A DNA stretch of 64,000 nucleotides from Candidatus Latescibacterota bacterium (GTDB lineage: Bacteria; Latescibacterota; UBA2968; GCA-2709665): positions 128,001 through 192,000 of the forward strand of contig OZ244744.1 of the NCBI GenBank assembly GCA_965219455.1, given 5' to 3'. The position numbers were made by a program, and so were the translations under genes. Of this stretch, positions 32,665-39,999 are shown in pieces; the first letter of the stretch is position 1, and every line of letters begins with the position of its first letter. The notes below the pieces were generated by a model that had not been told where the DNA came from, did not search any database, and saw nothing but the letters and a program-made list of their open reading frames with translations.

Positions 32665-32823
32665 CAGTCCGTTGAAAAAGTCGCTCTGCAGGCGAGGCCG
32701 AGTCATTGTGGCCGAAGACAAGGCGCGCGACCGCGTCGAATCGGGGATTCGGGGAGGGAGCGCAACGCAGTAATTCGGCCACAAGGGCCGGCCGCAGCCC
32801 GGATGGACTTTTTCAACGGGCTG
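32665..32823 (-). mobile_element. MITE family A, copy 1 (159 bp)
   Basis: TIRs cagtccgttgaaaaagtc / gactttttcaacgggctg; flanked by TTAT direct repeats (32661-64, 32824-27), the second containing the sigma-gene stop codon. Confidence 0.9.
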
Positions 32824-33675
32824 TTATGCCGACTCCATGAGCGGCTCGAGTTGCAGCCGGCGACGCGGATGTCGAAGTCGCCGGAGGGCCTTTTCCTTAA
32901 TCTGCCGAACCCGTTCCCTGGTGAGGCTGAACCGGGTGCCGATTTCCTCCAATGTCATCGCTTCATCGTCGCCTAACCCGAAATAAAGCCTCAACACTTC
33001 CGCTTCACGCGCATCGAGCGTATCCAGGACCATCCTGACCTGATCCTTGACCGACTCGTCGACCACTTCAAGATCCGGCGCTTTTTGAGAGCTATCCGGC
33101 AGGATATGCAGCAGGCTGTGGTCGTCGTCGTCCTTGAACGATGCATCGAGCGACCATACATCGCGCGCCCTGAGGAGTGTATCCTGCACCATATCCACCG
33201 AAACGCCCAACTTTTCCGCAATCGTCTCAGGATCGGGATCGGACTCTTCCGATTGTCGAATCTCTCGCGACACCTTCGCGATATTGTGCAACAGATCAAT
33301 CCGGTTGATGGGCAACCGCACAACCCGTGAATCCTGCGCGAGGCTCTGATGAATGGCCTGCCGGATCCACCAGACCGCGTAAGAAATGAACTTGAATCCC
33401 CGCGTCCCGTCAAATCGTTCGGCGGCCGTCATCAGACCCATGTTCCCCGCGCTGATAAGATCGGCCAACGGCACGCCATGGTTCTGGTATTCCCTGGCGA
33501 CGCTAACGACAAAACGGAGATTCGAACCAACCAGCCTGTCCCTGGCCCGTTGATCTCCCTTTCGGATCCGGTCCGCGAGTGCAATCTCTGTCTCGGCATT
33601 AAGCGGCTCCGAAGAAGCGATATCCCTGAGATAGAGATCCAGAGATTCGCTATCCTGTATCAATATTCCAGCCAC
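32824..33675 (-). CDS. RNA polymerase sigma70 factor, short RpoD/SigA-like (no region 1.1)
   Basis: LDLYLRDI, NLRFVVSVA, DLISAGNMGL..AAERFD..RGFKFISYAVWWIRQAI, TLEEIG..FSLTRERVRQIKEKALRRLR. Confidence 0.93.
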   Translation of the reverse strand: MAGILIQDSESLDLYLRDIASSEPLNAETEIALADRIRKGDQRARDRLVGSNLRFVVSVAREYQNHGVPLADLISAGNMGLMTAAERFDGTRGFKFISYAVWWIRQAIHQSLAQDSRVVRLPINRIDLLHNIAKVSREIRQSEESDPDPETIAEKLGVSVDMVQDTLLRARDVWSLDASFKDDDDHSLLHILPDSSQKAPDLEVVDESVKDQVRMVLDTLDAREAEVLRLYFGLGDDEAMTLEEIGTRFSLTRERVRQIKEKALRRLRHPRRRLQLEPLMESA

Positions 33676-33714
33676 GTGTCCAACCTCCGGAAAAATAATG
33701 TGCGTTGCCCACGT

Positions 33715-34263
33715 TTACGTCGCCGGGACGTGCGCTCTGCACGCCTCCCGCAAAGGCCCGCGCAGGCTCATCTGCCGCAACAGAAGGCGATTCATTTCCT
33801 CGGCCGTACGGGACTTGAGAAAAGTTGCAGTAAAGTCTTCATGGAATAGCCTGCACAAGTAGCCGAGAAGGGGCAGATATCTGATATCGCCCTCCCCCGG
33901 CACCGCCATAAGGCAAATCAGCCGAACCGGCTCCGGATGCGTCTCCGAGTGAAAATCCACACCGTGCGATGAAATGCCCAACGCCATACCCAGATGCGCG
34001 GCAGACCGGCAACGGGCGTGGGGAAACGCGATCCCGTTTCCAGCAACGGTACTCTCCAGGTCTTCTCGGTCCAGAACCGATTGCAAAAAACGCAAGCTGT
34101 CGGTCACATAACCCGCGCCGTGTAACCGGTTCACGAGGGCCTTGATTGCACCCATCCGATCCCGCGGTTTCAGGCTTTCGACCATCGTCTCGGGGTGGAA
34201 ATCAACCACACCGCTCAATTCCGTTTTCCATTCACTTCCGTCGTAGTACTCTGAGAACGCCAT
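33715..34263 (-). CDS. PTS EIIA (PtsN/fructose-type) domain protein
   Basis: VLDRE...ST..GNGIAFPHAR (phospho-His), GVDF...PVRLICL. Confidence 0.85.
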   Translation of the reverse strand: MAFSEYYDGSEWKTELSGVVDFHPETMVESLKPRDRMGAIKALVNRLHGAGYVTDSLRFLQSVLDREDLESTVAGNGIAFPHARCRSAAHLGMALGISSHGVDFHSETHPEPVRLICLMAVPGEGDIRYLPLLGYLCRLFHEDFTATFLKSRTAEEMNRLLLRQMSLRGPLREACRAHVPAT

Positions 34264-34497
34264 GCCAATATAGCCATTGTTTGAAAATCAGCTCGATCCG
34301 GACATGTGTCTATTTCAAGTGTATCGAAGTGCCTGGATCGAAATTCAGCATATTACCCAATGCAAATTTTGCAGAACCGTCGCTTGTACGGTCACTACCA
34401 GTTCAGTATCTCTCACGTAAAACTCGCTGTAAAACAACCGCTTACGGCAAATCTCAGTGGTTTCATCGAATCCTGCAGTATCGTCTCCCTAAATATA

Positions 34498-34513
34498 AGC
34501 AACTTCAATGCCA
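34498..34513 (-). promoter_or_regulatory. sigma54 (-24/-12) promoter for the EIIA-sigma70 genes
   Basis: Minus strand reads TGGCAT-TGAAG-TTGCT against the consensus TGGCAC-N5-TTGCW; AT-rich tract 34515-34552 lies directly upstream. Confidence 0.8.
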
Positions 34514-34611
34514 GTTTTTTACAATAAAACATAAATATATAATATATATAAACTTACGCCCGGAGATTCCAATCGGCGGGCGCATGATCTCCGTTCTCGT
34601 GTTCATGCTGA

Positions 34612-34656
34612 CGCAAAATTTGCATCTAAATTCCGACGCGGCGCGCAAAAATTGCA
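34612..34656. promoter_or_regulatory. Tandem enhancer-like palindromes (candidate activator binding sites)
   Basis: CGCAAAATTTGCA 34612-24 and CGCAAAAATTGCA 34644-56, 32 bp apart; a third copy TGCAAATTTTGCA at 34361-73. Confidence 0.6.
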
Positions 34657-34696
34657 GAGTGGCTCGGAATGCGCCACCTGCGCGGCCTTCCTGCGC

Positions 34697-37740: not shown

Positions 37741-37769
37741 TTGACAACACACACCTCTTGGATTATTGT
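37741..37769 (+). promoter_or_regulatory. sigma70 promoter of rho, followed by a C-rich/G-poor leader
   Basis: TTGACA, 17 bp, TATTGT; A-rich UP element; leader about 37776-38010 is pyrimidine-rich. Confidence 0.7.
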
Positions 37770-38010
37770 TTCTGTGTAATTCTTCTGCTTCCTTCCCACT
37801 TTTTAGCCGCACTCATACAGATGGCCCCTCGCTTTAGGCAGCCTTAGATACACGAACATCCTCGGTTCACCCCCTTTTGCCCGACAACTACAATTTCATC
37901 CGATCTTCTTTTCCGCCGTTCCCTCCGGCTCCCTGAGTTTCGGCCGGAATCCATGAAAGATTAACTACCTGTATCAATCACTCCGCAACTTTAACAAATT
38001 GGATCCGCCA

Positions 38011-39318
38011 ATGGCAACCGAAACGACCAGAGAATTTCCGAAGACGCCACCCCGAGCAAGTGGTGTGGAAATATTGGAACTCCAGAACATGACCATTTCG
38101 GAACTCGCAAGGTTGGCTCAGGGCCTTGAGATCCAGAGTTATGGAAGCCTGAGAAAACAGGAGCTGATTTTCTCCATCATTCAGGCACAGACCGCGAAAA
38201 ACGGATTGATCCTGGCCAAAGGCGTTCTGGAAATCCTGGAAGACGGCTTCGGCTTCCTCCGATCGCCCAATTACAATTATCTCCCGGGTCCGGACGATAT
38301 CTACGTCTCACATTCGCAGATCAAACGCTTCAATCTTCGTACGGGCGACACCATTTCAGGACAGATTCGCCCACCCAAGAACGACGAGAAGTATTTCGCG
38401 CTCATTCGGGTTGAGGCCGTGAACTTCGAAGATCCGGAACAGTCCAAACAGAAAACCCTCTTCGACAACCTCACCCCGCTGCATCCCCGGCAACGTCTGA
38501 AGCTGGAATACGATTCGAACGACTTTTCAACACGAATCATGAACCTGCTCACCCCCATCGGCAAAGGTCAGCGTGGGATGATAGTAGCGCCTCCCTTTAC
38601 GGGCAAAACCATGTTGCTTCAGAAAATAGCCAACGCAATCACCGAGAACCACCCCGAAATCATTCTCATTGTGCTACTGATAGATGAACGTCCCGAGGAA
38701 GTCACCGACATGCTGAGGTCCGTCAACGGTGAAGTCATCAGTTCCACATTCGACGAACCTCCGGCACGGCATGTACAGGTGGCAGATATGGTCATCGAAA
38801 AAGCCAAGCGCCTGGTGGAACATCAACAGGATGTCGTTATCCTGCTGGACAGTATTACGCGCCTTGCGCGGGCATATAACAACGTCATCCCCCACAGCGG
38901 CCGCATCCTGACCGGCGGTCTTGATTCCAGCGCCATGCAATGGCCCAAACGATTCTTCGGCGCCGCGCGAAACATTGAAGAAGGTGGCAGTCTGACCATC
39001 CTTTCCACAGCCCTTGTCGAAACCGGAAGCCGCATGGACGAGGTCATTTTCGAAGAATTCAAGGGTACCGGTAACATGGAACTGAAACTGGACCGGCGGC
39101 TGAGCAACCGGCGAATCTATCCCGCGATCGACGTAACCCAGTCCGGCACTCGAAAAGAGGAACTGCTGCTCGACGAAAAAGAGCTCAATCGGGTCTGGAT
39201 CCTGCGCCGGTTGCTCAACCAGATGCCTGCTCTGGAAGCCATGGAATTCCTCAAAGAAAAGATGGCGGGGACCAGAAACAACGAGTCCTTTCTGGATTCA
39301 ATGAACAGGCAGTTGTAA
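38011..39318 (+). CDS. rho: Transcription termination factor Rho
   Basis: [64 protein letters not shown]. Confidence 0.98.
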
Positions 39319-39489
39319 GAAACCCGAGTATCGGCTTTCAGGAACCGCCAAGCCGGAGGCACGGACGGCGGCGGTTTCCTATCCAGTAGCCGCGTTTGGC
39401 CTTTATGTCCTTGCGCAAGAATTCTGTTTTGTATATATTTCGTGTCCGTGTTTATCGTCGACTCTTCCGCATCTGAGGACCTGTATCAC

Positions 39490-39747
39490 GTGAAACCGAA
39501 AATTCATCCCAATTACGTGGAAACCACCATCACCTGCGCCTGCGGGAATACCCTGACCACGCAGGCGACCGTGCCCGGCCTGCGGGTGGACATCTGCTCC
39601 AAGTGTCATCCATTTTACACGGGCAAGCAGCGCCTGGTGGACACAGCAGGAATGGTGGAACGCTTCCGGCGGCGGTACAAAATAAACGACGAGGAAGCCG
39701 GCGATGTCCCTGAGCCGGCCGGAGCGACGGAAGCCGCCGAAGATTAG
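39490..39747 (+). CDS. rpmE: 50S ribosomal protein L31 (Zn-binding, C+ type)
   Basis: [30 protein letters not shown] start. Confidence 0.95.
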
Positions 39748-39767
39748 CCATCCGGACTGTCACAGAT

Positions 39768-39824
39768 AAGGTGAAACGGCATCGCCCGCCTACCGGTGGA
39801 CGTGAGTACCGCTTCGCCTTTTTT
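39768..39824 (+). terminator. Probable terminator after rpmE
   Basis: aaggtgaa-acgg ... ccg-cttcgcctt stem followed by a T-run. Confidence 0.45.
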
Positions 39825-39839
39825 GTTGCCTGCCGCTAG

Positions 39840-39999
39840 TGTTCTGTCCCGGAAATAGATTGCCTAAATTCGGCCGCCGAGTCGCCCGGCTGGCAAGGCG
39901 CCTGAGCGAGGCGACCTGCGCAAGGTCGGCGAGCGAGGGGAACGCAGAGAGACGGGATGAATCGGCGGCCGAATGGTGAGATATTTCTGGGACGGGACA
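39840..39999 (+). mobile_element. MITE family B (160 bp)
   Basis: Imperfect TIRs tgttctgtcccggaaata / tatttctgggacgggaca; inner IR ttcggccgccga / tcggcggccgaa; flanked by CTAG and CAAG. Confidence 0.7.

Follow-up and report, generated by a model that had tools for sequence, protein, structure and literature searches.

What keeps one structured centre in place between transposon ends that do not align? The question is raised by a 64,000-nt stretch of DNA from Candidatus Latescibacterota bacterium (assembly GCA_965219455.1, contig OZ244744.1, positions 128,001 to 192,000 of the forward strand), referred to here as the window and numbered from its first letter. The window holds copies of two families, A and B, of MITEs (miniature inverted-repeat transposable elements); the source genome is a single contig of 5.84 Mb with 58% G+C. 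The usual view of MITEs is that they are remnants left by deletion, restricted to one lineage and dependent on nothing but their termini. In the elements considered here, a centre of ~53 nt has kept invariant bases, non-canonical pairs and strand-specific pairing while termini and arms have turned over. Conservation of the core despite this turnover of ends implies a constraint beyond transposase recognition; it could lie in a structure for protein binding or processing, or in one that the element uses in its movement.

The explanation judged best, and held to be probable rather than secure, is that the core is a cis-acting single-strand module that aids the spread of a MITE superfamily. The core forms the middle of an old superfamily of ~160-nt MITEs whose spread is patchy and probably horizontal. 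Terminal repeats and arms vary within the superfamily; the length, the 4-bp NTAN/CTAG target duplication and the ~53-nt centre are kept. It is defined by its conserved structured centre rather than by its ends, and is undescribed in Rfam and in the literature searched. The core would be read as a single strand, either as RNA or as extruded or replicative single-stranded DNA (ssDNA), from the purine-rich strand, and would be kept by selection on lineages still spreading, not on individual resident copies. It would most likely bind a conserved protein, be it the transposase that mobilises the element or a ubiquitous factor of the host, RNase III for example, and such binding would raise the chance of the element being copied or tolerated. 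Neither RNA nor ssDNA, and neither transposase nor host factor, is ranked above the other.

Two MITE families with a common core

The A and B elements are MITEs. They measure ~160 nt, lack coding capacity and end in inverted repeats (CAGTCCGTTGAAAAAGTC / GACTTTTTCAACGGGCTG in A, TGTTCTGTCCCGGAAATAG / TATTTCTGGGACGGGACA in B). By blastn, the genome carries 38 full-length copies of A, 36 of B and numerous partial ones. Identical 4-mers flank 27 of the 38 A copies, all of the form NTAN (CTAA 11, TTAA 7, TTAT 3, ATAG 3, CTAT 2, CTAG 1), and 8 of the 36 B copies, mostly as CTAG; the lower number in B is explained by the greater age of its copies. A contig from a related strain skips 32653-32825 around the first A copy of the window, with break points that differ from the exact element ends. 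Widely spaced pairs of A or B ends revealed no autonomous parent: the five examined enclose ordinary genes or other cargo and no transposase.

The first A copy (A1, plus strand) occupies 32665-32823 of the window (159 nt) between TTAT target duplications at 32661-32664 and 32824-32827, and adjoins the stop of a minus-strand gene called at 32824-33675. Its core, at 32719-32770 on the plus strand (75.0 bits with the covariance model), runs CAAGGCG, CGC, GACCGCG, the hairpin CGAATC/GATTCG, GGGAGGGA, GCG and CAACGCAG. The B copy (39840-39999, 160 nt, plus strand) lies between rpmE and prfA with flanks CTAG/CAAG. Its core, at 39894-39947 on the plus strand (69.9 bits), runs CAAGGCG, CCT, GA-GC-GA, G, the hairpin CGACCT/AGGTCG, G, C, GA-GC-GA, GGG, G and AACGCAG, and shows two tandem G.A/A.G pairs with GC/GC between them. 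A second A copy (A2; 48701-48860, 160 nt, minus strand, core 48754-48806) has CTAG on both flanks, and a third (A3; 61593-61779, 187 nt, plus strand) has CTAT on both; the core of A3 (61647-61726, plus strand, 40.5 bits) is interrupted by a 27-nt palindrome. The sequence-only reading that drew attention to this locus had quoted the A and B sequences exactly as they stand in the window; it listed A1 and the B copy and passed over A2 and A3.

The window contains the arrangement CAAGGCG-N25-55-AACGCAG three times where 0.04 occurrences are expected, a number reached in none of 100 shuffles, and the covariance model R1, built as described below, gives 88 matches in the source genome. When the A and B consensus sequences (160 and 162 nt) are compared, the arms outside these two anchor words are no more alike than shuffles (left arm z 0.6, 350 of 1000 shuffles as good; right arm z 0.7, 295 of 1000), and for the 25-nt termini 447 and 919 of 1000 shuffles are as good. 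Likeness beyond the exact anchors themselves is seen in the stretch that they enclose (z 2.4, 25 of 1000 shuffles as good). The common core within non-aligning arms, first proposed from the window alone, is borne out by this comparison; that the A and B termini are diverged copies of one sequence is ruled out, as they cannot be aligned.

A third MITE family of the source genome, C (~19 copies of 110 nt or more), has quite different termini. It has in common with A and B only the junction words CAAGGCG / AACGCAG beside the arm helix, and between these anchors lies a plain, G.U-rich long helix. Because family C carries the anchor words without the A/B interior, these words are the most widely common part of the core. 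Several B copies in the source genome read AACGCCG.

Fold of the core

The shape of the core was read from sequences of another family of the same class and from loci of other phyla. In this ~53-nt centre of the MITE, the arm helix is followed by an asymmetric loop of CAAG opposite AG, after which GCG pairs with C and GC, the two being separated by a 3-nt AAC bulge. The interior has tandem G.A/A.G pairs, two or three in number, between which one or two Watson-Crick pairs are interleaved, and the tip is a hairpin of 6-8 bp, free in sequence with its pairing kept, closed by a loop usually of 4-8 nt. The 3-nt stretch after GCG pairs in A and B (YRY/RYR). Elsewhere its commonest form is GAG opposite CGA, that is G.A, A.G and G-C. 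The stretch is followed by GA-NN-GA opposite GA-NN-GA, where two tandem G.A/A.G pairs flank two mostly Watson-Crick pairs. One tandem G.A is degraded in the local A subfamily (GACCGCG), and many A copies of the genus retain GACCGAG.

Fourteen cores, three from the window and 11 from family f4 of the phylum, were aligned on a structure written by hand (alignment A1), which was the source of model R1. In this alignment 88% of cells are paired against 30-43% with slid partners, and both sides change in 18 of 25 pairs. R1 gives 104 matches in 100 loci of other phyla, and the 103 distinct sequences among them (alignment A2) have 84% of cells paired against 24-46% with slid partners, and changes on both sides in 22 of 25 pairs. 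Their covariation score is 0.638, a value that none of 500 shuffles attains (0.18 in shuffles); these loci were gathered with a fixed pattern whose 22 bases are invariant by construction.

Covariation in inverted-repeat DNA calls for caution, as such DNA can yield compensatory-looking changes without RNA. The nature of the exceptions is more telling: in the arm (outer) helix 110 G.U stand against 13 A.C, and in the hairpin 70 against 11, an excess that escapes the caveat because a neutral palindrome should accrue G.T and A.C equally. The predicted fold energy favours the CAAGGCG strand over its complement (-93 vs -72 kcal in A, -101 vs -74 kcal in B), and the conserved G.A pairs would read as C/T mismatches on the opposite strand. 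From the G.U excess, the strand-specific energies and the G.A pairs together, it follows that a single-stranded fold of one strand, the purine-rich one, is under selection.

The structural description given at the outset is supported in part. Stems that differ in sequence yet keep their pairing are found in both alignments, with covariation that is strong against shuffles in the 103 sequences. The purine-rich internal loop exists as a feature, but consists of tandem G.A pairs and is not a loop. The conserved RNA or ssDNA fold holds as a conserved fold of one strand, for which the data do not favour RNA over ssDNA, and the option of a small ribozyme finds no support in the analysis. The core is in any case a sharply defined and easily mutated experimental target.

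An additional feature is seen in the arms: CAAG occurs in the 3′ arm of 44 of 109 loci versus 13 of 109 in the 5′ arm, with its complement CTTG in the 5′ arm of 19 of 109, and the 3′-arm copies cluster at +12, +17/18 and +32 from the core (loci L023-L142). This excess suggests a second conserved unpaired CAAG in several lineages.

Distribution across bacteria

Family A as a whole is confined to its genus, where it is present in 14 of 14 other species; outside the genus, one weak match was obtained in the other genera of the family and none in 19 genomes of a sister family. The exact anchor words are enriched in the same genus and again in another family of the class. R1 matches 50 of 151 genomes of the phylum in a patchy manner (own genus 14/14, sister family f2 1/30, family f4 30/64), and some of these genomes show bursts of equal-scoring, identical copies.

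Beyond the phylum, a pattern of 22 fixed bases, for which ~1 chance match is estimated in the 596-Gb genome collection searched, finds at least 120 loci in many phyla. The matches listed include Actinomycetota (Streptomyces, Nocardioides and others), Bacillota (Lachnospiraceae, Blautia, Oscillospiraceae, Syntrophomonas, Peptococcaceae), Colwellia and Alteromonadaceae (Gammaproteobacteria), Myxococcota, Deltaproteobacteria, Gemmatimonadota and Latescibacterota. Among them the matched length is mostly 51-55 nt (49-69 allowed), with few longer, and several copies per genome are frequent. In 16 of 16 folded loci among these matches the core is central in a long hairpin, most of them visibly flanked by CTAG-type words, and four measured elements have lengths of 159, 159, 160 and 216 nt, those of Streptomyces and Lachnospiraceae falling at 159-160 nt. 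About ten of the listed loci, titled Gemmatimonadota or Latescibacterota, have arms nearly identical to those of family A and may represent the same lineage under other names.

For example, a Lachnospiraceae element matches 21 Streptomyces plasmid records over the core only, with 79-87% identity in 19 of the 21 and a shorter piece at 94% in the other two. No annotation lies under the match in the Streptomyces plasmid records (21 and 29 matched), and carriage by phages is limited to a single viral contig with the 22-base pattern in the viral collection. Carriers of the core include sponge symbionts, Streptomyces, Lachnospiraceae of the gut and marine Colwellia. The sequence-only reading had correctly placed one core in two families of the same genome and had missed this spread across phyla.

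Decay of resident copies and the constraint on spreading lineages

Variants shared between copies are depleted at the anchors relative to comparison sites (per site, A 0.50 vs 1.88, p 6e-5; B 2.00 vs 3.06, p 0.03). Singletons are equal at anchors, termini and the rest (per site, A 0.36/0.42/0.45; B 0.57/0.61/0.58). Equal singletons combined with the depletion of shared variants at the anchors imply that resident copies decay neutrally and that the constraint acts on lineages still spreading.

Could the core have no function at all, its resemblance stemming from common ancestry and recent horizontal transfer and its pairing from nothing more than the palindromy of inverted repeats? MITEs start out as palindromes, and changes that look compensatory are therefore possible without selection on RNA; the neutral decay of resident copies, the patchy distribution and the bursts of identical copies would all be expected. 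Such an origin does not account for the unequal numbers of G.T and A.C, nor for conserved G.A mismatches at places where perfect pairing is expected. It is equally at odds with cores that are 79-87% identical between Bacillota and Actinomycetota when the arms are not alignable, and with the depletion of shared variants at the anchors. The absence of function is already disfavoured and is considered very improbable.

Termini of the IS1182 type

The IS1182 family comprises IS4/IS5-like DDE transposases. Two IS1182-family insertion sequences are present in the source genome (299 bits on NF033551, cut-off 270). The first measures 1636 bp and occurs in three copies with CTAG/CTAT duplications. The second (ISy, ~1.55 kb) has the terminus GGAGCCTGTCGGAATAC, of the same type as that of the family f4 MITEs (GGAGCCTGTCCGAGTATTC), and an IS1182 terminus from Enterocloster (GGGGCTGTCGGGAAATAGAT) is close to the terminus of family B (TGTTCTGTCCCGGAAATAGAT), both likenesses being judged by eye, without a statistic. 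IS1182-family elements differ from the MITEs in being autonomous, 1.55-1.65 kb long, equipped with transposases of 452-481 aa and devoid of the core; a 4-bp CTAG/CTAT target duplication and the type of terminus are common to both. In the source genome, the core is absent from the interior of its two IS1182-family elements, and their termini are not those of any large MITE family. At 4621057-4624242 of the genome, two different IS1182-family elements stand end to end, and the CTAG between them is common to both.

The terminal inverted repeats of A and B had been called unrelated and the core had been taken as cargo carried by different transposon ends. The ends are indeed different and do not align; they are not unrelated in kind, being both of the IS1182 type with 4-bp NTAN/CTAG duplications, and with one type of end the idea of unrelated transposons that each gained the cargo is not retained. 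It is preferable to see in A and B branches of a single old superfamily of MITEs and not unrelated transposons with cargo.

A further explanation is that the core is itself a mobile or recombining module, which entered unrelated MITE backbones several times in the manner of nested very small palindromes. Alignable cores within non-alignable arms would fit, as would the family f4 locus L011, whose A-like arms carry a different terminal repeat and which indicates an exchange of modules; that other small modules insert at different sites within A and B is demonstrable. Against this, no solo core was found (88 R1 matches vs 44 A and 45 B copies by blast, numbers of the same order compared by count only). 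Moreover, the core has neither a target duplication nor a boundary of its own, is always central and in one orientation relative to the asymmetry of the arms, and sits in elements with a length near 160 nt in all phyla. Shorter forms of 52-125 nt arose by deletion from one short direct repeat to another, CGAG or CCG for instance, which rules them out as empty precursors. Independent mobility of the core therefore appears improbable, and its inheritance as the centre of one MITE superfamily is preferred.

Likely kinship with Correia elements and comparison with known systems

Searches of Rfam 15 gave no match in the window at the gathering threshold and, in E-value mode, nothing above noise for A, B or 20 loci from other phyla; the early impression that the core belongs to no named Rfam family was correct to this extent. 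No description of the core was found in the open literature searched, and six relevant terms are all absent from a preprint on noncoding sequence space. In its available text, a 2024 review of prokaryotic MITEs mentions no core common across phyla, no IS1182 and no Streptomyces (PMC10969869).

The closest parallel is found in the Correia elements of Neisseria (CREE, or nemis), which resemble A and B in their length of ~155 nt, inverted termini, TA-centred duplication and long hairpin. Copies were fetched with the 28-nt repeat printed in two papers (PMC5039591, PMC9778887). The 155-nt form reads, between its termini, CAGGA-CAAGGCG ... GAGC(C/T)AAGGCG-AGG-CAACGCCG-TACTGG, and the 69-nt form consists of termini and CAAGGCG-AGG-CAACGCCG. 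CAAGGCG stands after the 5′ arm helix and CAACGC(C/T)G before the 3′ arm helix, the same places as in the core described here. R1 aligns the arm helices, CAAGGCG and CAACGC(U)G of Correia elements, with a score of only 11.8 bits (E 0.076 over 11 kb), and the CAAGGCG strand folds slightly better than its complement (e.g. -63.0 vs -58.0 and -66.8 vs -59.2). They differ as well: the 26-bp Correia inverted repeat (PMC5039591, PMC9778887) is unlike the A and B termini, and in the interior the tandem G.A module and the covarying hairpin are missing, with an integration host factor (IHF) site there instead, as reported in the available part of PMC2649163. From the placement of the words relative to the arm helix, Correia elements are likely kin of the MITEs with the core, a resemblance that counts as one observation since they form a single lineage.

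According to the parts of the literature available, RNase III binds Correia elements, either cutting or protecting them, and the mechanism that mobilises them is undetermined (PMC2649163); RNA 3′ ends occur at their known RNase III sites (PMC13714241). The core may tie these long-studied elements to a wider family and to IS1182-type transposases. A more specific proposal, offered tentatively and more doubtful than the general explanation, is that of an undescribed class of structured nucleic-acid module, an aptamer-like core with three tandem G.A pairs and an invariant CAAG/AAC/AG junction as their cap, which would have spread to at least six phyla in IS1182-type MITEs because, as RNA or ssDNA, it recruits a transposase in trans or a universal factor, e.g. 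RNase III, and of which Correia elements would be a reduced branch. If correct, it would provide a first handle on the mobilisation of Correia-type elements. Independently of this proposal, a covariance model of the core would flag thousands of intergenic hairpins that are currently nameless.

ERIC, RUP, BOX, Nezha, Chunjie and REP/REPIN are, like A and B, short, multicopy, hairpin-forming and often located at gene ends; each is restricted to a genus or family, unlike the MITEs with the core. REP/REPIN further differ in having neither terminal repeats nor target duplications and in depending on the RAYT nuclease. Some small bacterial repeats affect mRNA processing, as the available text of the MITE review states (PMC10969869). 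TRIT repeats of Mycobacterium have a conserved palindromic motif and ~147 copies at stop codons (PMC3152330) and are now proposed as RNase III substrates (PMC13714241), as far as the accessible portions of these sources go. At ~50 nt, with no MITE frame and a reported restriction to Mycobacterium, TRIT repeats are set apart from the core by description.

Two structured motifs offer analogies only. The core recalls a kink-turn in its tandem sheared G.A pairs near a 3-nt bulge. A kink-turn has G.A and A.G immediately after the 3-nt bulge, on the strand that bulges; identity is out, since GC comes after the AAC bulge and the G.A pairs are located 5′ of it, one pair away. Integron attC sites are likewise folded single strands in which conserved unpaired bases mark the active strand, and identity is again out, the R and L boxes being absent. 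Readings of the core as an IHF site, a Shine-Dalgarno sequence or a CsrA site are out as well, the features needed being absent or not conserved between families.

Genomic context and weighing of the evidence

For the analysis of orientation, 44 A and 45 B copies were counted by blast. In tandem-gene contexts of the source genome, the purine-rich strand is sense in 44 cases and antisense in 23 (p 0.014; sense to antisense, A 14:9, B 21:10, C 9:4), and 12 of 108 copies lie inside called genes. Of the gene 3′ ends that face a copy, 42 of 102 are within 10 nt of it, a closeness expected from a TA-containing target at stop codons. Contigs from four metatranscriptome runs bridge rpmE and B as well as a sigma-factor gene and A. 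The evidence from the RNA libraries consists of these bridging contigs only, coverage gaps and depth summed over repeats being uninformative.

Several observations, besides the fixed pattern behind alignment A2, weigh against the core as a module aiding spread. B-type ends also occur, in several copies, on forms of 52, 85-88 and 105 nt and on a 193-nt form with another interior; in four elements with B-type ends (916006-916197, 2002223-2002415, 4485227-4485419 and 94719-94929 of the genome) an A-rich interior of ~110 nt replaces the core, which indicates that B ends also move other cargo. Termini of core-bearing and core-less copies are equally conserved. The core is not strictly needed for movement or persistence. 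With respect to the transposase, NF033551 is matched at E<=1e-10 in 21 of the 50 model-positive genomes, with no match in the high-copy genomes G098, G105, G106, G161 and G162, and Nocardioides T5 has MITE copies and no IS1182-family transposase match. As to an associated transposase, the IS1182-type ends and duplications point to one, whereas co-occurrence with it is weak, in a test that is itself weakened by draft genomes and divergent transposases. The orientation of copies is inconsistent: in three genomes of family f4, where 64 of 90 loci were scored, 13 are sense and 20 antisense (with 22 in convergent and 9 in divergent contexts), so that a transcription-orientation bias is not general. 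No replication bias is seen in the source genome (57 leading vs 51 lagging). Finally, strand, ends and level cannot be read from the RNA contigs, which do not establish expression.

Some of these data bear on another explanation, in which the core is an RNA element of host transcripts: in a copy located in a 3′ UTR or between cistrons, the purine-rich strand would form a long hairpin punctuated by mismatches that is bound, cut or specifically spared by RNase III or another RNase and thereby shapes mRNA 3′ ends or stabilises upstream messages. A fold that tolerates G.U and not A.C, the proximity to gene 3′ ends and the preference for the sense orientation in the source genome agree with such a role, as do the RNA-library contigs that link rpmE to B and the sigma-factor gene to A. 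Correia elements add the same junction words together with their binding, cutting or protection by RNase III and their RNA 3′ ends, as given in the accessible text of PMC2649163 and PMC13714241. However, the orientation bias is not reproduced in the three relatives, and the contigs may reflect carry-over of DNA. Anchors have no fewer singletons than other sites, so resident copies are not visibly selected by the host, and a generic hairpin would suffice for this role, with no need for invariant bases across phyla. A role in host transcripts is thus rather unlikely, without being negligible, and the cis-acting module that favours the spread of the MITEs remains the preferred explanation.

As regards replication, cumulative GC skew of the source genome is lowest near 3.52 Mb and highest near position 0. 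If these extremes are the origin and terminus, the replichores measure ~3.5 and ~2.3 Mb, and the inferred leading strand carries 56% of called genes.

Nested modules and other repeats

The 27-nt palindrome within the core of A3, CCTGCCTG...CAGACAGG (61654-61680, no strand), belongs to a separate family of very small palindromes of 25-37 nt, CCTG(C/T)CTG...CAG(A/G)CAGG, with 84 copies in the genome versus none in a reversed-sequence control. They are inserted at varied positions within A and B copies and elsewhere, mostly beside GC, and resemble nested mini-insertions. A further layer of modular variation in B is formed by short modules TTCGACA(A/G)GCTCAG, at times in tandem, which lie at or beside the anchors of some copies (e.g. 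918890-919068, 2184494-2192 and 1258794-1259054 of the genome) and destroy CAAGGCG. Elsewhere in the window, at 24279-24389, a 30-nt tandem repeat occurs in three copies of 80-100% identity within an apparent coding region.

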